64,000 bases of DNA from Eledone cirrhosa (GCA_964016885.1 OZ024741.1:192076001-192140000), one strand, 5' to 3'. Shown: positions 7,201 through 48,007, numbered from the stretch's first letter. Program-made: numbers and translations. The notes: a model not told the origin generated them from the letters alone.

Positions 7201-7637
7201 CAAATAACGAAACGAAATTAAATTTAATTTCGTTTCGTTATTTGTTTTTATCGTCTCCGTTGAACCGGTACGTACTCACACTCTATGCAAATTGGTCTGC
7301 CCACTACTAATTTTCATAGAAAAAGCATATAGCGATATGTGCTTTTACGATTCTCTAGAAAGGCCGGGAGATAGGTAAATATTGCTGATGAGTTGTAACA
7401 ACAACGAAACTAGTTCAATATTCCTTGTCTGGCTTTCTGGAGAATAGAGGAAAGGTGTTTCCTCAAAAACCAGTATGACTCTAAAAACCGGTTTGTCTGT
7501 GTGTTTACATACAGAATAGCTGGACACTCACAGTAAAGTGACCAGTGAAAAAATCGGTACATCTACATATGTATACGTGTGTGTATTCATATGCATACTA
7601 GTATTTCAGTATACATATGTGGATGTACATTTTTAAC

Positions 7638-13899: not shown

Positions 13900-16771
13900 C
13901 ATCATCATCATCATCATCATCATCGTTTAACGTCCATCTTCCACGCTTGCATGGGTTTGGACGGGAGTTTTCCCACTTGAGGCAAGAGTGGTTGTCTTGC
14001 TCGCATAGGACTGTGTGGCAGGTTTTCTACGGCTGGATGCCCTTCCTAACACCAACCTCGTTTACAGTGTGGACTGGGAGGTTTTTACCGTGTTACCTAC
14101 ACGGCCACATTACAGCGCGGACTGTGTGTTTTTTTGTCGTGACACCTACACGACCTCATTTGTTTCGGACTGGATGGTGTGGCACCAACATAACTTTACA
14201 TTGAAAGAGGTGGTGTGGATGGGGTGGGGTTAGTGGGACGGGGGTGTATTTTTGTTAGAGCTGCCTACTGACTGTAGTAGGTTTCATTTTGTACTTAGGT
14301 AAGGTGGGTTTTCTCTGTATTACTGTGTAGCGCCAAAGATCTCGGTTCAGTGACATTGTCTTGGAGAGGTGTAAGTGTGTGAGGTCGGAATTTATCAAGT
14401 CGTCCCAGGTTTTTCTGGGTCTGCCTACTCAGTGGCTATCGTCTATTTTTATTGCGCTGCACTTTTTTATACAGCTGTCGTCTTTCATGCGCATCATGTG
14501 ACCTTCTCTCAAGTAAACAACATCTGATCCCTCTTATTTCTAATTTTTCCCTTAGTTCGTTTATGCTTTGCCATTCACGTATATTACTATTACACATCCA
14601 GCGGAGCATGCAAGCTTCGTTCCTCTCCAGTCTGCGTATATCCTCTGCACACAATGCCCAGGTCTCACTTCCATGTAACATTGCTGTTCGTATGCAGGCA
14701 TCATACAGCCTGCCTTTCATTTTTAGAGAGAACCCTTTAGCGGCCATTAGTGGTATAAGCTCTCTGAACTTTTTCCATCCCGTTCTGACTCTAGCTACTG
14801 TACTTTCAGAGCACCCTCCCCCACTGCTGATTTTATCACTCAGGTAAAGGAAGCTGTCCACTATTTCTATAGAACCATCTGTGCAATGGAATGAGTTAGT
14901 ATTCTGTGGGCACTTGCTGCTACTTATTGCACCAGAGCACCGGCCACATATAAAATCTATATTCTTAGTTAGCTTACCTGTGATCCCACTACATCTTTTA
15001 TGTACCCATACTTTGCATTTGGGACATAAAAAGGAGTTTCTACCTACTTCTTTCCTACACAATGAGCATGATGGGACCGGTGCCCTATTTTCCTTCCTAC
15101 AAACTAGAACTTTAGTCTTAGACAAGTTAACTTTAAGGCTTTTTGATTCTAGGCCATGCTTCCATGTTTGGATTTTCTTTTCTAGTTCAGCCATTGATTC
15201 AGCTATGAGCGTTAAATCATCTGCATATAGGAGTTCCCATGGGCAGCCGGTCGTGAACTCCTCTGTTATAGCCTGAAGGGTAATAATTAATAGTAGGGGG
15301 CTAAGGACGGAGCCCTGATGAACACCAACTTTTACGCTAAACTCTTCACTATATTCGTTGTTAATTCTAACCTTGCTGACTGTTTCTTTATACATGGCTT
15401 GTATAGCTCTCACAAGCCATTCATCAACACCTAGTTTTCTAAGGGCCCACCAGATAATCGAGCGGGGTACTCTGTCAAAGGCTTTCTCCAAGTCAACAAA
15501 AGCTAAGTATAGGGGTTTACTTTTAGCTAGGTACTTCTCCTGTAGTTGTCGTACAATGAAAAGAGCGTCTGTTGTACTTTTACCTGACACAAACCCAAAC
15601 TGCATTTCGTCTAGATCACAGGTTCTCAACCCATTTAGGCCAACGCCCCCTTTTGTCCCTCGAAATCACGAAACGCCCCCCCCCCCCCCACCACCCTATT
15701 TTTCCATTTTTCAATATACTACTGATTTTTATATCAGTAGATTACTAAAAAATTGATTAACAATTGATTAAAAATTGATTAACAATTTTTTCTTTTCTTT
15801 TTTTTATTTGTAATATTATTTATACAATAGGGAATAAAATAGATCTACATAGTGTTAACTCGTCGCGGTTGAGTCAATAATTTCAGACATGAAATACATT
15901 GTTATCGGTGAAAGAAAGATAAGATCCTAACCGGCTTCGCTCAAAGTGTTTTTGAACAGTTGACTGTGGGTTTTTACATTTTTAGGATCTCAATTACCGG
16001 ACATGCCTGCACACCTGCTCACAGCTGCAGTTCGACTATAGTTATGCTGTCTGCAAGCTCATTCAAATGCATTCACACTGGCTGTCTCAAAGACAAACAA
16101 ATACGGCTTATAAAACCCCCCTAACGCGACCTTGCTTCCAAACGCCCTCCTGGGTGTGCATATGCCCCCCGTTGAGAACCTTTGGTCTAGATCAATTCGC
16201 TCTCTGATTAGTTGCGCTATTACTTTTTCTGTGACCTTCATGACCTGGTCAATTAATTTAATGCCTCTATAGTTTCCCCTATCTAGAGCATCACCTTTAC
16301 CCTTGTAGCAGTTAATGATGATGCTGCTGCGCCAGTCCTTCGGAACGACCCCATTCTGTATGACTTGGTTTACTATCCGGGTGACCATAGTGTGTCCCAC
16401 CGTTCCAGATGCTTTCAGCATTTCAGCAACTATTTCCAAAGGCCCAGCTGCCTTGCCTGTCTTCATATCTTTGATCGCCTTACTTATTATACTACCTTCA
16501 ACTTGCACTGCTGGTCCCTCTATTGGGTCGATGTGGGGGAGACTGTCTTTCTCCCAATTATTCTCCTCATTTAGTAGCCTTTCGTAGTGACACTTCCAAG
16601 CTACCTTCTTATCAGCGTCAGTGATGGCAAGTACACCATCATCATTTAGGACACACTTCTCCCCGACAATATCACTGTTTTCCTTGACACATTGCCTAGC
16701 AATCCTGAACACCTCACGTTTTTGGTCTTCGCGTTGTAGAACATGCTTGAACTTTCTTTCCTCTGCTTCCC
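13900..16771 (-). mobile_element. 5'-truncated RTE-clade LINE with RT domain, split by a hAT MITE
   Basis: ORFs 16059-16847 and 14436-15629 join across the MITE (ERIDLD|EMQFGF). Motifs KGKGDALDRGNYRGI, FVDLEKAFDRV, GVHQGSVLSP and LLYADDL. (GAT)n 3' tail at 13900-13924; 5' end abuts (TA)(CA)n. Confidence 0.92.
15617..16184. mobile_element. Non-autonomous hAT (Charlie-like) MITE, 568 bp
   Basis: 14-bp TIRs CACAGGTTCTCAAC / GTTGAGAACCTTTG (1 mismatch). Exact 8-bp TSD GTCTAGAT at 15609-15616 and 16185-16192, the NTCTAGAN site typical of Charlie elements. Confidence 0.93.
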
Positions 16772-28727: not shown

Positions 28728-29800
28728 TATCATCATCATCGTGTAATGTCTATTTTCCACACTCGCATGGGTTAAATGGGTTGCCATGTTATGAGACAAG
28801 TCAGGTTTGGAGACAATGTCATGCTCATATGGATCTGTATTTTGGCTTGGCTTTTATAGCTGGAGACCTTCCCTAACACCAACCATGTTACAATGCTGAC
28901 TGGATGCATTTTGTTGTGTCACCAGCATAACCACCAGCCAAGGTGGACTAGGTGCTATTTATCAGGTTACCAGCATGACTACATTACAGGGTGGACTGGG
29001 TGCTTTTTCTTGTGTTACCAACATGATTACCTTACAGTTTGGGTGTTTTTGTTGTGGCACCGGGTCAGTATACAAGGTTGGTTTAGTGCTTTTTGTCGTG
29101 ACAACAGTATTGTGGGAGACCAGATGTGCGTGTCTAGCTTTCATGTTTGTATGTGTGGGTTAGGCAGGCAAGGCAATGCTTGTTTCATTTCATTTTCTGC
29201 ACAGGGAAAGGCAGGTCTTCTGCAACACAGCATGATGCCAGAGATCTCGATCTTGTGTCATCTCCTTTGTGATGTTTAATTGGGCATGGTCAGCTTTTAT
29301 CACTTCATCCCAAGCTTTCTTAGGTCTTCCTCTTCCATAGTTTCTGTTGACTTAGAGTACCCTGCACCTTTTTATGCAGTTGCCATCCTCCATATGCATC
29401 ACACCATCTCCTCTCCTGTACACTACATCTGACTCCTCTTATGCTTAGTGACTCTTTCACTTCATTGATGCTTTGTTGTACATCTATATCTATTGGAGCA
29501 TGCAAGCTTAATTTCTTTTCAATCTTCATAGGTCTTCTGCACATTATTCTCCAGGTCTCACTTCCATGCAGTATTACTGTTCATACACAAGCTTTCATTT
29601 TGAGGGAAAAACTTGTTGTAACTAGCAGCGGTAGTAGCTCCCTGAACGTTTTCCATTCCATTCTCACTCTGGCTACTATACTTTCAGAACACCCACCTCC
29701 ACTGCTAATTTGGTCATCTAGTTAACAGAAACTATCAACTACAGTCTTCTGCACATTTAAAGGAGCTGGTTTCCTGTGAGCTCTTGCTACTAACTGCAGA
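28728..29800 (-). mobile_element. Diverged RTE LINE 3' fragment
   Basis: Paralogous to 13900-14940 (GGGCSES..ARV, GSETW, GVRCSVQERR) with a (GAT)n tail. Confidence 0.75.
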
Positions 29801-32479
29801 TGGTAGGTTTTTCCTCGATTTGAATATTCTTTTCAGGTGGTTAGTGGAGTTGTCGTCAGATCCAGGGGCCCACCTGTTGTTGTAGTGGTAGGCCCTCCAG
29901 CGGATCCTTCTAATGAAATTGTTGGTCTGCATTAGTAGAAGGTTCATGGATACATCATCCGAGGGTATAGGTGTGTCCTTTAGGGAGGAACTGTTGTGGA
30001 ACAATTCCATGGTGTTCCAGGTAAGCGCTCGACTAGGAAGGAGCTATGTATCCAGGGAGTGTAACTTGGACTTACTGTAGGTTCACCCGGTTGTCCAGTT
30101 CAGTGTCAAGGTGTAGAGCTATACAGAATATTCAAATCGAGGAAAAACCCACTGCACAACCCACTCCTAGAGGAGTTTGAGGACAGGATCATTACCATGG
30201 TCCGGAGTATTAAATTTAGAAAATCTACGCGAAATCCTGACAGAAGTGCATTCCTGTCTGAGCTCACATCCACCGTACAGAAGGTCAGGAAAAGCCCTGG
30301 CATCATCATACCAGCGGATAAGACGGGAAATATTTATAATTTGGAGTACAAAACCTACAAGAAATGCATCATAAACGAACTAGCTAAAATATACAAAACA
30401 TCAACACAGGAAAACCTAGCACACATAAACAAACAGGCAAAAACGATAATGACGGAATTGACCATAGACGACAGGACACAACCATACAACCCTAGGACAC
30501 CGAGGATATCGATTAAGGACCACAAACCGGACTTTCAGTCCAAACTACCGGTCAGACTCATAGCTCCCTCTAAATCAGACCTAGGTAGACTAAGCAAATG
30601 CATCATTGACCGGACAATGCAAGAACTAAGAAATAGGACTAAACTCAGCCTGTGGTCCTGTACAAAAGAGGTAATTGACTGGTTCTCCGGCATTGAAACC
30701 AAGTCGGACGTCCAATTCGTACAATTGGACATTGCGAACTATTACGTCTCTATATCCCCAGTCATCCTAAACAAGGCACTGATCTCAGCCATGAACAGAT
30801 CAAGCCTCACCAGAAAGGAGGTAGACATCATACTAGTAGCTAGGAAAACCTTACTAGAATTAGACGGTAAATTATGGGAACGACAAAATAGACCAGATAG
30901 CTTCAACATTACTATGGGATCTAGTGACTCTGCACAAGTTACGGATGTAGTAGGCCTCCTAAATATAATAATGGATGAGATCCCCACCATGGGCGGAGGC
31001 TTGTACCGGGACGACGCCCTACTCAAGGCCCGCGGACTCAATAATAGCCAATTAGATAGACTACACAAACGACTTAGATATATCTTTAAGACCCAAGGAT
31101 TAGTGGTAGAAATAGAACCTAACAGTAGGACAGTAAACTTCTTAGATGTCACATTAGAATTAGACACAGGTCTCTACTGCCCATACCATAAACCAAACAA
31201 AAACCTAAAATATGTCAACAGACACTCCAACCACTCTAGGAGCATAATTAACTCAATAGTTAAAAGCGTTTCCTAACGAGTGTCAAACCTGTCGGCGAAC
31301 AAAACTATCTTCAACAAGCACACGGAATACTATAACTCCGCACTTGAAAAGGCTGGGTACAATGAGAAGATAACTTACAATGACCAAACTAGAACCACAA
31401 CACCGCTAAACCAAAACAGACCTTTAGAAACCCATATAGACGAGGACACCCCACCTAGAACAAATACGAACCAAAGACCACCCTTAGCCGGCAGGGCAGG
31501 CAGCGTTACACACAACTGTCATGGAGATAAAGCTATACTCTCCAACCCCAATAAGGACTCTGATTATAGCACACGATGACCTAGTAATAGAGACCCAAGA
31601 CTTAACGCAATAGAATAGCAAGAACCCCCATGACAAATACGCCTGACCAAAACACACCCACACAACCACTAAACCACAACAGCTATACTAAGCACCGTAC
31701 AGCACGAAGCAGACCCGTGACATGGTACAACGCTCCGTACTCTATACACGTTGCCACCAATATACCGGGAACCTTCTTCAGAGCTCTTGACCAATCCTTC
31801 CCACCCATACATAAATATCACAAGCTCTTTAATAGACACACTGTCAAATTCTCCTTCTCCACAACACCAAATCTAGGCGACACAATAGCACACGCAAATA
31901 GGACAAAAATACACGAGAGCACCACAACCAACCACAACCCAGAATAAAACAACACACACAACACAACAACCGACAGCGTAGCAACAAACCCATAACCCCC
32001 AACTGCAACTGCAAAAGGCGGGTGGAATGCCCACTAACCACTAAACGAGGAGTGTCTCGTTAAAAACATTGTTTACCGGTGCGATGTCACAGCGGGCCAA
32101 AAAGAGTACTCCTACATCGACTACGTTTAAGGAACGCTTGTATAACCACAAAAGTTCCTTCAAACACAGGCCCAAACGATCCCAAACAAGACTGGCGGAC
32201 TTGATCTGGAACCTCAAAGACAAGAACTTGGAATACCAGATCAAGTGGTCAGTTAAAAGACGTGTGGCACATCTCCTCAACGACAAAAACCACTGCAGAT
32301 TATGCCTGGCCGAAGCGGCTGAGATCATTAAATTGAAATCGGCCATAAACTCAACATCTGACGTTATTATAAACTGCAGACACACCAGAATGATCACCTT
32401 CTCTGCACAAACATTCGGCCGAGGGCCAAACACTAACCCTGACCCAACATAGGGATAACCAACTTTGCTTTTCCACACC

Positions 32480-32812
32480 GTCCCTCATCTCAATACATTT
32501 GGCTTCTATAACATGTAACCCATGGTAAGATCAAATCTTGTAAATATCATGTCACACCATTCACCCCCACCAACAAACACTTCGCCATACATCCCCCATC
32601 TCAATACTATTGTGTTCTATGTGTCTTCTCTGTCAGGTATTAACTTGTAACCCATCGTAAAATCTGACCCTGTAAATATGATGTCGAACAAATCATCCCC
32701 ACCACCACTACTATCCCTCAGTCCAGTACCCCGTGTTCCCTATGTCACGTTTTAACCTGTAATCCATCGTAAAATTCGACCCTGCAAATATCATGTCACA
32801 ACCACCAGACAC
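32480..32812 (+). repeat. Three imperfect ~110-120-bp tandem repeats downstream of the PLE ORF
   Basis: Core tgtaa.ccat.gtaa.at....cc.tg.aaatat.atgtc at about 32514, 32646 and 32758. Confidence 0.7.
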
Positions 32813-33105
32813 ATCACCATACTTACACAACCATCAACATCACCAACACATATCATCCCTCCTTAAACAACGCATGTGTGTGTGTCTGTGTGTAGACATA
32901 TCTGTACGAACGCCATCCCCACTGGCTCTCTCACTCTCTCTCTCTATCTCTATATATATATATAACCAAAAGTTAAACAAGGTTCATTGATTAATCAATG
33001 AATATAGTTTTACAATAGATTAGAAGCACTCAACAAAGAAGTTTTCTGGAGTTATTAATATTAATTCAAAATATTAATAAATATAGACATTCATGTGATC
33101 AAATA

Positions 33106-33171
33106 TATTTTATTATATATATTTCAGAGGTACTGTGCTGTTTCCTCAGTACCTCCTCATCAGATAAAATA
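33106..33171 (-). ncRNA. Type I hammerhead ribozyme motif, intact copy, sense to SCYL1 pre-mRNA
   Basis: TATTTTAT-CTGATGA-G-GAGGTACTG(11 nt)CAGTACCTC-T-GAAA-TATATA-TA^ATAAAATA: 8-bp stem I, 9-bp stem II plus G.U, palindromic stem III. Confidence 0.75.
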
Positions 33172-33223
33172 AATTGATGTCTGACATACCTCAACTACAA
33201 TTGAGGTATGTCAGACATCAATT

Positions 33224-33289
33224 TATTTTATCTGATGAGGACGTACTGAGGAAACAGCACAGTACCTCTGAAATATATATAATAAAATA
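33224..33289 (+). ncRNA. Type I hammerhead ribozyme motif, inverted copy
   Basis: Mirror copy of 33106-33171 with one G>C change in stem II. Confidence 0.7.
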
Positions 33290-33306
33290 TATTTGATCAC
33301 ATGAAT

Positions 33307-34494
33307 CATCATCATCATCATCATCAACGTTTAACATCCATGTTCCACGCTTGCATGGGTTTGGACGGGGGTATTTCCCACTTGAGGCAAGAGTGATTGT
33401 CTTGCTCGCATAGGACTGTCTGGCGGGTTTTCTACAGCTGGATGCCCTTCCTAACGCCAACCACATTTACAGTGTGGGGCTGGGAGGTTTTTACCGTGTT
33501 GCCTACACGGCCACATTACAGCGTGGACTGTCTGGCGGGTTTTCTACGGCTGGATGCCCTTCCTAACACCAACCACATTTACAGTGTGGGGCTGGGAGGT
33601 TTTTACCGTGTTGCCTACACGGCCACATTACAGCATGGACTGTGTGTTTTTTTGTCGTGACACCTACACGATCTCATTTGTTTCGGCCTGGATGTAGTGG
33701 CACCAACATAACTTTACATTGAAGGGGCGGTGTGGAGGGGGTGGGGGTGGTGGGAGGGGGGTGTATTTTGTTAGAGATGCCTCCTGACTGTAGTAGGTTT
33801 TACTTTGTATTTAGGTAAAGCGGGTCTTCTCTATTACTGAGTACCGCCAAAGGTCTCGGTCCAGTGACATTGTCTTGGAGAGGTGTAAGTGTGTGAGGTC
33901 GGAATTTATCAGCTCGTCCCAGGTTTTTCTGGGTCTGCCTACTCCGTGGCTACCGTCTATCTTTATTGCCCTGCACTTTGTTATACAGCTATCGTCTTTC
34001 ATGCGCATCACATGACCATACCAACGTAGCCTTCTCTCGAGTAAACAACATCTGATCCCTCTTATTTCTAATTTTTTCCTTAGTTCGTTTATGCTTTACC
34101 GTTCACGTATATTACTATTACACATCCAGCGGAGCATGCAAGCTTCGTTCCTCTCTAGTCTGCGTATATCCTCTGCACACAATGCCCAGGTCTCACTGCC
34201 ATGCAACATTGCTGTTCGTATGCAGGCATCATACAACCTGCCTTTCATTTTTAGGGAGAACCCTTTAGCGGCTAATAGTGGTATAAGCTCTCTGAACTTT
34301 TTCCATCCAGTTCTGACTCTAGCTACGGTACTTTCAGAGCACCCTCCCCTCTGCTGATTTTGTCACCCAGGTAACGGAAGCTGTCCACTATTTCTATAGA
34401 ACCCTCTGCGCAGTTGAAAGAGCTAGTATTTTGTGGGTACTTGCTGCTACTTATTGCACCAGAGCACCGGCCACATGTAAAATCTATGTTCTTA
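33307..34494 (-). mobile_element. RTE LINE 3' fragment inserted in a hairpin arm
   Basis: Highly similar to 13900-14967; internal tandem duplication of about 113 bp in the 3'UTR (33413-33640). Confidence 0.9.
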
Positions 34495-37339
34495 TGTCTA
34501 TATTTATTAATATTTTGAATTAATATTTATATATATATATATATATATATATACTCACATGTGTATCTATACTACGTATTTGTCAGACCTAGTGTGTCTG
34601 TATGTATCTCCTTAGGAAAAAGAAACCACGAACACAATCATCACACCACCATAAACACCGCTACTTTTCATCTTTATCACAAACTACTACACCACACCCA
34701 TACCACACACAAAAATCAGCCACATCTACATGCCAAACTGTCAGCCAGCACCCCCACACCCCCGCCCACTTCAACCTGCGATCGACACCACAAAATTTTC
34801 ACCACACCCACCCCTACATACACTACGGGCAAAAACATCCCTATGAACTAATCCCCCAATCAAAACAAACTTTACTGACATTATCATACAGCATGTATTC
34901 ATTCTTCCATTAACATTACAAGGGGTCTGACGAGCCGCGGATTACAGAGTCAGGTCAGATCGATACGCTCGTCACCAACCAATAAACATAATGAAGGAGT
35001 AACCAATCATCCTTGTCATCTTATTTAACTATATATATATATAAAGAATTAGTATATCTATCAACATACATATACAGATGCATACCTATGCTAGCAAATA
35101 TATAGGTTTTGTCTTAGTAACTTTGTGGTTCAATGCAAGGGAATGCAGAACAATTATATGAAAGACGTAAAATAAGAAAATTATAAAAATTAACTTACTT
35201 ACTAAAATTTCACTCTGGAGTGAAATTTTAGTAAGTAAGTTAATTTTTATAATTTTCTTATTTTACGTCTTTCATATATATATATATATCATCATTTCAT
35301 TGTTGTTTGACAGCTGTTTTCCTTGGTAGCAAGAGTTGAATGGGTCTACATAGACCTCCCAGACAGCCCGGGTGGGGTCTGCATTATATCAAATGCAGAG
35401 GCGAGGCTGTCATATATTTGACACAACTGAAGGGTCCTCCTAACCCTTTGTTTATACATATACATGTACACATGTATTGTGATACTCTATGTATATATAG
35501 TTTGGCACTGTTATATATACATTTACTAATATTCTGGATTTTCAATAAATGGTACATATTAACCCCCAAAACAAGGAATATAATACTGAGTGTGTTTCTT
35601 GTGTGTATTTAAGAGTTGAGATTGTCAGTTTGTTGTCATTTTTCCAAGAGAAGAAACAAATACACATAATTTGAGACTATAGATGAAGATACTTGCTGAA
35701 AGTGCTTCACAGTGCAATAAAACCTAAATGGCTGCAAAGCACATTTCTTAACCACTTGACCATGTCTATACCTTCTAACCACATAGCCACTCTCTCTCTC
35801 TCACACACACAATTATCATTTTATATCCGTTTACCAGATGGGTCAGAGATACCGCTGACTTGTTACTCCATAATGCCAACCACCTTAGAAGGTGTACTGT
35901 GTGCATTTTATCATGGTCCCAGTAATAAAAAAACAGTGACTTATACTATACTTATACACACCTAAGTAAACTGTCTGACAAAGTGCCAGGAATTATCTCA
36001 GGTTTCTACAAAACTCAAAGGAAATCCACAATGGAGTACTGTTGTTGTTACACAAAAGTTCTACAGTAGATTCTGAAAATGGCCACTTTACTCATTGGCA
36101 TGAAGTCACTGGCAAATATATTCTCACCTCTAGCCCCCAAACATGCTGTCATCTTCGTTTTTTATATCGTGACTACAGTGGCATCCGAAGCATTCTGAAC
36201 CTACTTGACTCCTTGCTTAACAGTAATATAAATGAAGCCGCTTCCAATTTAGTTACAAGGCAAGAAATTTGGGGAGAGTGTTAGCCAATAAAATTGACAC
36301 TGGTACTTAATTGATACTTGGATGATGAAAGACAAAGTTGATCTCAGTGGGATTTTATCTCAGAGCATAAAGACATTTGTGCAACATACTAGCGATTTTG
36401 CCAATTCATGACTGTAATATGAGTAGCATAATAACAATATGTCACTGGTGCCAAGCTGCATCGGCTTGTGCCTTTCATTCAAATAACCTTGTAGAGAAAA
36501 AATAATTATCAGTTTATGGGGAGGTTTAATGTATTTTGATCAGTTGTCTCAAGAAAAAAATAAACAATGACAACACTTCATAATAAACTGAATTTGACAA
36601 GTTACAGAAGTAACATGCACGCAAGAAGTAGATTCTGAAGAAAGTCAGTTAACAATAAAGACCTAAACTATAAAGTGTGTATTTTTAATTGGCAAATTGT
36701 AAGTTATTTGGTTGTAGTATGTGTAGAGTTAGTATTGGTTTGCTATTGAGGTTCGTTGTTCACTTTTGTGTGTGACAGATGTAATAGTAATAGTTGACTT
36801 GATGGGTGATTCCATGAATTGCTCTCTCCCATATAAGCGCTGTGGGAATGTCTGTGATTTATGGCAAATGAATTGAGTGTATCTCATTGTGTCAAAATGT
36901 GTGGCTGTACACATTGCCATAGTCAGTAGTTGAAAATTGAAGGTTTGAAAGTGAAATTGCCATTAGCAATATCTGATGAACAATAAAAAAAAAACACTAT
37001 GATAATAATTTTTATTAAGAAATAATCTATGCCGAAGTTATTTTGACAACACAGGAAAATAACAAGAAACTAAGTGAATTGTGTGTTATGTTTGTGTGGT
37101 TGGTTTATGTGAATGCTGTAGTAGTCTGACAAGATGCATGGAATTAATCTTTATTGAACCTGTTGAGAGGGCTGAAGTTTTTGGTTAAGAACTACATTCC
37201 CCTGCTTTGCTGGAGCAAACTTTGTGATGTGTCTCCTCTGAGAAACGAGAGCAGAATGGTTTGATGAAAGTGTTATCTTAAATAAATTGCCAATGACCTT
37301 AGTTGGGTGCTTTCTCAAGACAAACTGGTGACTCCCATC

Positions 37340-45235: not shown

Positions 45236-45844
45236 GTGCAAGAATACACCAGCTTCAGCATTCAGTAATCAGAAGAAAGAATATTTAATTAGTTCTTTTT
45301 TCTGTTTCACTTGCATTTCTGAAGTTAACAATTTATTTTGTTTTGTAATTAATATTTCTGGCGAGGTATTGGGATGAATTTATTGTAATATATGTCTAAA
45401 ACATGGATTTATGTATGTTACTTTAAAATGAGGAATGAAGATACTGGAAGAAATGAAAGCTAAAGTAATATCGTTCGAATAATTAAGCATATGAAGAATG
45501 ATATTTTATAATTCATCTAGTATATAATTCTTACAATATTTCAGTTGTAATAGATTCTGTCTACATAATAAATCTTCTGAAGCATTAACTAATATTTTTC
45601 TTCTGCTACTCCGAAAACGAAACTAAACAAACGAAACTAAACAAACGAAACATATAATGAAACAAATTAAAAATTAGTTTTATTAATTATTTATGATTTT
45701 AGTAATACCGTTTAGATTCATTTTTTAAAATTTATCATATTAATTTTATTTAAATATAGTTTCTTTAAAATTTTATAATTTATATTATTGAAGTGAAATG
45801 GATACGAAATTAATTCCACCTTTTCATGTTACTAAACTGCTGCA

Positions 45845-48007
45845 ATGGCAGAGAAACAATCAGAAGAAGTGAGTGAAGTTATGTCATCTGAGATAATCAA
45901 TTTAAATGTTGGTGGGCGACGATTTTCAACCTCACGGCAGACTTTGACCTGGGTACCAGATTCTTTCTTTACCAGTCTTCTCAGTGGAAGGATATCAAGT
46001 CTAAAAGACGAAACTGGGGCTATTTTTATCGACCGTGACCCCAAATTATTTTCGATCATTTTACGATTTTTACGAACTAAAGAAATCAGTTTAAAACATG
46101 TTGACGTCTCAACACTTCGACACGAAGCCGAATTCTACGGTATTATGCCATTAATTCGCCGTTTGGTACTTTGCGAAGACCTTGATCACCCAACCTGTGG
46201 CGGTGTTTTGTTTCACAGCTATCTTTCGCCACCAACTCCTCCTCAACCGGAATCCATGGACGGAGGTCAGTCTCATTCTCTTGTCAGTTTAATTGAATCT
46301 GAATTATGTAGACCTGGTGTGGCTCAGAGAGTCGAAGCTGGTGCTAGTAGCGAGAACAACAGCCCACAACAACTACACACCCATTCCAGAAATTCTTCAG
46401 ACGATCTTTGCCATTCTCATTCCAGACAACCCTCCATGGAACTTCGACCTAACGTTGTGTCTCGCAATTCCTGTGGTGACATCCAGCATTCACGCAAGTC
46501 TTCCTGGGATTTAAGAGGTAACAAATTCGACTCCAATCATATGCCTGTTCAGTCTATGCGGGTAACAATGTTACGCGGCCACCACAACTGGATCTGTATT
46601 GCTTATTTACATTTCATCTCCTGTTTTCGTATGGATTCCACAGGTTGGCACTTGATTTGGACCAGTTTCTATATGGAGAACCCCGTAGAAAGAGTTGCTC
46701 TTAATGCCAAAGTGATCAATCCAAACCAGGACTTTGCTAACAAAATGGTAGCTGCTTCTACTGGAAGCACGGTTTGGTTGTGGTCTGTCACAGACGATGG
46801 TGACAGTAGAGAAATTGGAACATTTAATTTGAAAGTCTCTGTAGATTCTTTGTTTTTCATTGGTAGTCAACTTGTGGCTCTCAGTCAAACAGGTAAAGTG
46901 GGAGTATGGCATGCAATGACACAACATTGGCAAATACAAGATGTCATACCAATCACAAGTTATGACACAGCTGGCTCTTTCTTACTTCTCGGTTGTAATA
47001 ATGGATCGATTTATTATATTGATATGCAAAAATTTCCTCTTCGAATGAAAGATAATGATTTATTGGTGACAGAACTTTACAAAGACCCCAGCAATGACAT
47101 GGTCACTGCTCTTAGTGTTTATCTAACACCAAAAACCAACAGTCTCAGCGGTAATTGGATTGAAATTGCATACGGTACAAGTTCTGGCACAGTCCGTGTA
47201 ATTGTTCAACATCCAGAAACAGTTGGACATGAACCACAACTTTTCCAAACTTTCACAGTTCACAGAAGCCCTGTTACCAAGGTAATGCTGTCTGAAAATC
47301 ACTTAGTTTCTGTCTGTTCAGAATATAACCATGTTAGAACCTGGAGTGTCACTCGCTTCAGAGGAATGATTTCTACCCAGCCTGGTTCCACCCCACTTGC
47401 ATCTTTTAAAATTGTTTCTCTTGATAGGATGGATAACCAAATGAGCTACCCTGGTGGACACGATTTTGATAAATTACCTGGTCCTTTTGGGGAACAAGAT
47501 GATAAACAGGTTTTCGTGCAACGTGTTGTCCCTGATACAGATCAACTTTTCGTACGTCTTTCTTCCACAGGTCGGAGAGTTTGTGTCATCAAGTCAGTTG
47601 ATGGCAGCCCTATAAGTTCATTTTGTGTCCATGAATGTGACGGATCTAATAGAATGGGGTCCAGACCCAGACGCTATTTATTCACTGGACATACCAATGG
47701 TAGCATCCAAATGTGGGATTTGACTACAGCTATTGAGATGATGAAGAAAGACCAGTGTACAACCAGTGGGGGTCCTACACCTGCAGAATTAGTCTACATT
47801 CTTGACCAGTTTGATTTGAGTAATTCCCGATCATCTACCCCTTGTATCAGTCCATCTACATCTGTTATTACACCCCATGGATTCCAACCCATGGCATGTC
47901 GTCAAAAAACTGAAACCTTTCCTTGTGATCACCAGCCCGAAGCTGGACTTGGTTCTGTTGATGTTGAAGATGATGATGATTTTGAAGCTGAAGTATCTTG
48001 TTTTTAA
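45845..48007 (+). CDS. KCTD3: BTB/POZ domain-containing KCTD3/SHKBP1-family protein, single coding exon
   Basis: Uninterrupted 720-aa ORF. KCTD-type BTB ([30 protein letters not shown]) and family motifs [55 protein letters not shown]. Confidence 0.93.

Follow-up and report, generated by a model that had tools for sequence, protein, structure and literature searches.

The 64,000-nucleotide stretch of Eledone cirrhosa DNA analyzed here (GCA_964016885.1 OZ024741.1:192076001-192140000; hereinafter the window) carries, in the first intron of the SCYL1 gene, a fold-back insert with a hammerhead ribozyme motif on each strand. The question is whether this hairpin is a distinct non-autonomous retroelement, as an earlier reading of the sequence alone (the sequence-only reading) had proposed, or whether it was made by another element. 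Our analysis favors, with a probability of roughly 0.8, an insertion that consists only of the pseudo-long terminal repeat (pLTR) of a Hydra-type Penelope-like element (PLE), was built on site from one uncut RNA copied twice, and has its hammerheads masked as a side effect.

The general layout of the insert, two arms between (TA)n tracts, is as previously described. A repeat scan detects 99% complementarity between 33089-33194 and 33201-33306 and 97% between 33053-33090 and 34494-34531, and the two 138-bp arms agree at 137/138 positions once an interrupting long interspersed nuclear element (LINE) is removed. The six nucleotides taken for a loop are present and mark the point where the two arms, truncated at nearly identical positions, meet.

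A first look through the genome with the arm gave 1,411 candidates; 53 matches were scored, at 91-100%, and a 25-mer from the arm occurs exactly 1,069 times (0 for the control). One arm match adjoined sequence of a GIY-YIG endonuclease (EN). Among 30 loci chosen by GIY-YIG DNA alone, 27 have the arm ~1.15 kb downstream on the same strand, and most loci chosen in this way have a reverse transcriptase (RT) upstream; thus, an autonomous PLE that carries the arm, for which the sequence-only reading had proposed to look, is represented in the genome. At the start of the open reading frame (ORF), 13/30 loci have the arm together with a 95-bp segment ~70 nt ahead of the ATG. Since the arm follows GIY-YIG and the arm plus this segment precede the ATG, the arm is the pLTR and the segment, previously regarded as some 90 bp of unique sequence, is the family's tail. 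The parent, known from broken copies with YRDD and VY..YIG motifs, encodes an RT with a C-terminal GIY-YIG in one reading direction; its unit length is estimated from these copies at ~4 kb, including a 1.15-kb 3' untranslated region (UTR). The pLTR at both ends, the inverted 5' copy and the optional tail are all present in the parent family.

Judged from its sequence motifs, the parent is identified as a member of the Hydra clade of C-terminal EN-containing (EN+) PLEs, which includes Hydra-1_Obim of Octopus and Penelope-13_HM (Craig et al., 2021, PMC8557442). The features shared with this clade are the order of RT and GIY-YIG, the DKT motif (KSDKTNNLY in 12/20 parent reads), the CxCx5C linker (18/24), the lack of a Cys pair inside GIY-YIG (only a single Cys across 27 VY..YIG spacers, so that the CCHH cysteines are absent from this interval), CxxC before the conserved E (CNLCNxE, seen 23 times), insertion into (TA)n, and a canonical hammerhead in sense orientation close to the 3' end. 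Penelope-13_HM also has an inverted 5' copy, a hammerhead on both strands and the G.U closing pair (PMC8557442). In contrast, the parent unit is ~4 kb whereas Hydra-clade elements are "generally <3 kb" (a descriptive, not a diagnostic trait), the RWK position is occupied by RWR, a conservative variant, in 10/17 parent reads (RWH in 2, RWK in 0), the tail is ~100 nt compared to 30-40, and helix II of the hammerhead is longer and retains a pyrimidine mismatch. Pfam gave no match for the RT and GIY-YIG pieces of the parent; an Atlas search with these pieces first matched a eukaryotic cluster with HTH_animal at 38%, with RVT_1 among the further matches, and a protein search with the parent RT recovered 15 relatives at 34-62%.

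Several other identities were considered and rejected. Naiad has an N-terminal GIY-YIG whereas the EN here is C-terminal; domain order and clade diagnostics exclude both Naiad and Neptune, and Hydra-1_Obim itself differs in its hammerhead and N-terminus. The parent ORF (L072, L074 and other copies) contains an Asn/Lys-rich stretch between the RT and the linker, with long (NK)n repeats in some copies, which recalls the N-rich inserts of rotifer Penelope elements (PMC3846280). Sister families, labeled B (loci L017, L027, L155, L170, L177 and L181) and C (L194, L178 and L137), cluster in the same TA-rich spots; near the sampled loci these families show the same hairpin-plus-tail layout with different helix II and III sequences.

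A type I hammerhead descriptor matches both arms, with CTGATGA at 33232 (+) and 33163 (-) and a UA^ site, as had been noted; in 30 block-shuffled windows it gave 0 strict and 0.03 loose matches per window. The window motifs have an 8-bp stem I, 9 and 11 paired positions in helix II, and helix III ATATATAT. Rfam, named in the sequence-only reading as a means of checking the motif, returned no hammerhead family for the window hairpin at gathering or at E<=10, and its matches to microRNA families under the gathering score are attributed to the long hairpin. Only the copy in SCYL1 sense had been considered intact. Both cores are complete, and the left (-) arm departs from the family through a private C>G change at 33153, which makes position 4 of helix II a G-C pair in a motif found exactly only at the window locus, whereas this position is C.C in 91/109 distinct main-family motifs and C.U in family B; therefore it is the + arm that represents the family-standard form. 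A weaker hammerhead-like match, with 5 paired positions in helix II and 7 in stem I, lies in another repeat at 7385 (+).

Conservation of the fold was assessed over 27 distinct motifs (11 main-set motifs, the two in the window arms and 14 belonging to sister or older groups). Paired cells make up 95.8%, compared to 34-60% in slid controls, and two-sided changes are seen in 9/21 pairs (7/9 in helix II and 2/4 in helix III, with helix I almost invariant), although these counts are inflated by relatedness, since the changes amount to a few events separating four families. Full self-complementarity of helix III is seen in 123/129 distinct motifs, a set picked for an intact core, and is maintained with differing sequences in the four families (AUAUAUAU, AUAUGUAU, AUGCGCAU and ACGCGCGU). 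Thus, the core CUGANGA/GAAA/UH is found together with three helices, of which II and III are backed by covariation, and the hammerhead fold is conserved across the sister families. The search for further copies preserving core and covariation, suggested from the sequence, therefore ended positively, as did the attribution to Penelope-type hammerheads with a palindromic helix III.

A cut at UA^ is predicted from the sequence. That the motif is non-catalytic in the family and retained as a structural signal for the protein of the element appears unlikely to us. The 5' ends of copies do not gather at the cut (see below), stem I is AU-only with a predicted pairing probability of 0.00-0.03 in single arms, and the closing pair 10.1-11.1 is mostly G.U in the family, all of which would suit such a signal. 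Conversely, the core letters are common to the four families, and helices II and III change in a compensated fashion; core conservation is not an independent test here because an intact core was the criterion by which the motifs had been chosen. Furthermore, related PLE hammerheads cleave weakly, only as dimers in one study (Cervera and De la Pena, 2014, PMC4209133) and, in vitro, with protein assistance in a PLE of Anolis carolinensis (Frangieh et al., 2024, PMC11167929).

Copy ends were counted in the first 100 listed exact 25-mer sites, which are on one chromosome and correspond to 83 loci with 129 arms. Nearly all arms (126/129) stop at one of two 3' sites, the pLTR end for 75 and the tail end for 51; these fixed ends are ~100 nt apart, and nearly all sampled 3' ends adjoin TA repeats. 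There are 22 strict adjacent head-to-head pairs in the 83 loci, and the addition of 11 pairs from the arm search brings the set to 33 distinct hairpins (L003 and L130 are the same and were counted once). Exactly one arm is tailed in 31/33 hairpins and in 21/22 of the unbiased subset, compared to the ~48% that independent ends would give. On the 5' side, the tailed arm is the longer one in 11 hairpins and the tail-less arm in 18, with equal reach in 2. Arms within one locus differ by 2.3% (pooled) versus medians of ~3-9% to other loci. The window junction, 33195-33200, has 1 match in the 3.0 Gb genome at <=1 mismatch, and arm lengths and arm ends differ at every locus. Because the junction is unique, the hairpins are likely made anew at each insertion, one arm from each start site; contrary to the original proposal of an element copied as a hairpin, the hairpin is not copied as a unit. 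An independent fold-back family resembling miniature inverted-repeat transposable elements or short interspersed nuclear elements was likewise rejected given that there is no common junction and no fixed arm length.

At the other end, 44/129 sampled arms have their start 91-120 nt upstream of where the cut is predicted. Across the genome, 325/581 copies carry a non-template base directly before ACTGCC, compared to 92/673 one base inside and 17/256 one base outside, and 29/30 inspected copies with such a base are true junctions. The 5' boundary is TC|ACT, which precedes the predicted cut by 114 nt, with the window arms stopping ~30 nt short of it; it coincides with an initiator-like (Inr-like) motif noted in a rotifer pLTR (PMC3846280). 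Among the first 100 cases, this non-template base is G in 48, versus 13/92 one base inside (p = 5e-7), and in L1 and SVA untemplated G has been interpreted as the signature of a cap (PMC4859970). By contrast, a non-template base is found at the predicted cut in 31/1,048 copies, mostly through point changes in whole motifs, and just 2-3 of 20 inspected candidates at this position are junctions. From the sharp start, the excess of G and the lack of a pile-up at the cut, we infer a capped, uncut, sense template. The idea of cleavage-defined 5' ends, suggested by L078 where an upstream pLTR starts at the predicted cut, was rejected as a rule by the genome-wide counts. Another cluster of 5' ends, near -236, proved to be an alignment artefact caused by the divergence of subfamilies.

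The insertion most likely proceeded as follows. The parent enzyme would nick both strands of a (TA)n tract, and a capped sense RNA starting at TC|ACT would stay uncut; priming would take place at the pLTR end of this RNA for one nicked strand and at its tail end for the other, and both cDNAs would extend toward the RNA 5' end, stop (in the window, ~30 nt short) and be linked head to head. It is for the parent element that the hammerhead would be of use, probably acting as a dimer or assisted by a protein. For head-to-head repeats of rotifer Penelope, snap-back self-priming of one strand has been put forward (PMC3846280), in which case the endonuclease would trim the outer ends and leave the tail on one arm. 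The many arms that stop near one another and the short overlaps at junctions are compatible with such a process. However, after snap-back one arm should be contained entirely in its partner, whereas three hairpin pairs share no overlapping arm sequence, and a fixed staggered cut would assign the tail consistently to the longer arm or consistently to the shorter one, unlike the 11 versus 18 cases observed. The cap-like G at a sharp sense 5' boundary also fits a sense template instead, so that we regard self-priming as rather improbable.

Several points weigh against two-ended priming on a single Hydra-type RNA. No intact parent ORF was found among 16 long regions examined, and the proposed clade assignment is based on motifs and comparison by eye. 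Two RNAs from one source locus would yield the same arm similarity as one RNA. The hairpin sample comes mostly from one chromosome and is enriched for young copies. Finally, the start G is common at arm-arm joints (10/11 G cases) and rare where the start abuts (TA)n, and junction microhomology could add to the G excess.

With respect to masking, folding gives -178.7 kcal/mol for the duplex versus -92.8 kcal/mol with the hammerhead helices forced, and helix probabilities of 0; in the hairpin, the hammerheads are thus predicted to be locked inactive by arm pairing, and the SCYL1 pre-mRNA would therefore not be cut. On either strand, transcription of two head-to-head arms reaches the antisense arm first. 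These properties, along with the abundance of hairpins, speak for a self-contained non-autonomous element whose transcript is re-inserted in hairpin form and in which masking would have been retained as an off switch. Nevertheless, this model is very improbable considering the unique junction, the arm ends that vary per locus, the identity of the two ends with those of the autonomous parent, and the window copy itself, which is without the likely start site of the family and was hit by a LINE. The masking part of the earlier proposal is therefore predicted to hold but the notion of an evolved switch is unsupported, with no sign of selection: masking is a side effect of the geometry. We consider the hairpin copy to be most likely a dead-end passenger in the SCYL1 intron. 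Long RNA duplexes are possible substrates of A-to-I editing, and the 106-bp near-perfect duplex in the SCYL1 pre-mRNA could be one.

Much of this organization is already published, in particular the inverted pLTR with a tail, hammerheads on opposite strands, Hydra elements in Octopus and the tail defined by two start sites. The EN+ Penelope unit (Arkhipova et al., 2013, PMC3846280) has the same head-to-head inverted pLTR, one-arm tail and Inr-like TCACT; in contrast, the window insert contains pLTR sequence only, and the copy statistics favor two-ended priming on sense RNA over self-priming. Known PLE hammerheads are likewise of type I, located in the pLTR, with a long helix II and a palindromic helix III, and in Schistosoma paired motifs are found 100-700 bp apart on opposite strands (PMC4209133); those in the window differ in that helix III is 8 nt and self-complementary, not minimal, stem I is 8 bp, and the closing pair is mostly G.U. 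Poseidon of Anolis, in vitro, nicks and extends both strands of an AT-rich target, uses two RT start sites that define the tail, and has uncut RNA as its main substrate, cleavage not being needed for insertion (PMC11167929). In the two start sites, the extension of both strands, the AT-rich target and the uncut RNA, this matches what is proposed for the present family; Poseidon belongs to another clade and its tail is in the ORF start, compared to a tail of ~100 nt in the 5' UTR here; how inverted arms pair up is not addressed in the available portions of that paper. Metazoan non-LTR retrozymes are also non-coding, PLE-derived and equipped with a type I hammerhead (bioRxiv 10.64898/2026.07.22.740005), but form head-to-tail tandem arrays, unlike the single head-to-head pair in the window; no head-to-tail hammerhead arrays were found within +-1.5 kb of the 83 sampled loci.

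In the open-licence literature we found no description of the arm family, of the cap-G signature or of the one-tail-per-hairpin rule for PLEs; on octopus Penelope hammerhead ribozymes only Craig et al. (2021) was found, and on PLE twin priming with inverted copies the titles and abstract beginnings contained nothing on PLE mechanism. The arm family may be deposited in Repbase. The insert is ordinary for its class, and the part worth following is the family-level counts, to which it provides an entry: a young, high-copy Hydra-type family whose copy ends can be counted. These counts bear on questions that the papers call open, namely how the inverted repeat and tail form and what the hammerhead does (PMC8557442, PMC3846280, PMC11167929). 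We give about even odds to a wider proposition, that ~1,000 young copies record the PLE cycle in vivo, with capped uncut sense RNA transcribed from the initiator, every inverted pLTR-plus-tail unit being a twin-priming product, and the palindromic helix III pointing to an RNA-RNA dimer step. If true, this would settle the question of sense versus antisense template left from 2013. The sharp start with excess G, the lack of a pile-up at the cut, the single tail per hairpin and the covarying palindrome translate into direct predictions for cap analysis of gene expression and a reconstituted assay.

The insert is itself nested (Table 1): the host PLE was inserted first, then the hairpin, then the LINE. 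The 3' UTR of the host PLE, whose RT shares 52% of amino acids with the RT of the hairpin's parent family, continues on both sides of the hairpin. Its relatives join both flanks, and L250, with just a short TA tract between them, represents the empty site; other host-PLE copies bear other inserts at the same internal (TA)n, including, at L251, a hairpin of the arm family. The host PLE's own hammerhead, near 34926, lost GAAA through a deletion; in its family, helix III is the palindrome ACGCGCGT, and relatives have a branched helix II.

Table 1. Features of the nested insert (window coordinates)
Feature	Position	Strand	Comment
Host element, a different Hydra-like PLE	29735..35030	+	broken ORF ~30065-32452; inverted 5' piece 29735-30043
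Left (TA)n flank	32951..32963	.	belongs to internal TA tract of host PLE 3' UTR
PLE tail, ~95-100 nt	32962..33056	-	follows pLTR, opens 5' UTR of full-length copies; outer end blends into (TA)n
Left arm, 5'-truncated pLTR copy with tail	33057..33194	-	SCYL1-sense hammerhead, with the private C>G (33153)
Type I hammerhead motif, left arm	33106..33171	-	predicted cut 33114/33113
Head-to-head junction of two truncated arms, 6 nt	33195..33200	.	single genome match
Inner part of right arm, tail-less pLTR copy in family-standard form	33201..33306	+	
Type I hammerhead motif, right arm, family-standard	33224..33289	+	predicted cut 33281/33282
Later LINE insertion, 5'-truncated 3' end, (ATG)n tail	33307..34495	-	DNA similarity to 14008-14967 copy
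Right arm, outer 32 bp	34496..34527	+	stops at first fixed 3' end of the family, then (TA)n
Right (TA)n flank	34528..34553	.	

The statement that the insert has no ORF holds for the hairpin but not for the LINE fragment at 33307-34495 (~1.19 kb), a 3' end that contains RT-coding remnants. This fragment, presumably of RTE type, is covered at very high depth in four runs of unrecorded kind, whose assembled pieces were short contigs with none crossing the stretch, and is 91% identical in DNA over 970 bp to the copy at 14008-14967, whose ORF has RVT_1 and PHD domains. In several copies (L163, L075 and window position 33307), other elements, including the same (ATG)n-tailed LINE type, are inserted within or just past the AT-rich helix III and stem I of the hammerhead.

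The placement in SCYL1 (N-terminal kinase-like protein, - strand) agrees with that given in the sequence-only reading. Exon 1 is at 43830-43714 and is 97% identical to Octopus entries, and exon 2 is near 20035-19980, so that the hairpin is in intron 1; PDB and Pfam searches did not identify the short SCYL1 exons. Head to head with exon 1, ~2 kb apart, is a 2.2-kb open frame in one long exon (45836-48004, +; start MAEKQSEEV), which we take to have a BTB-like N-terminus and to resemble SHKBP1/KCTD3. Finally, a second, perfect fold-back with 61-bp arms (100%) adjoins (TA)n at 35155-35278; pieces of it match L079, and it is likely the end of yet another TA-targeting element.

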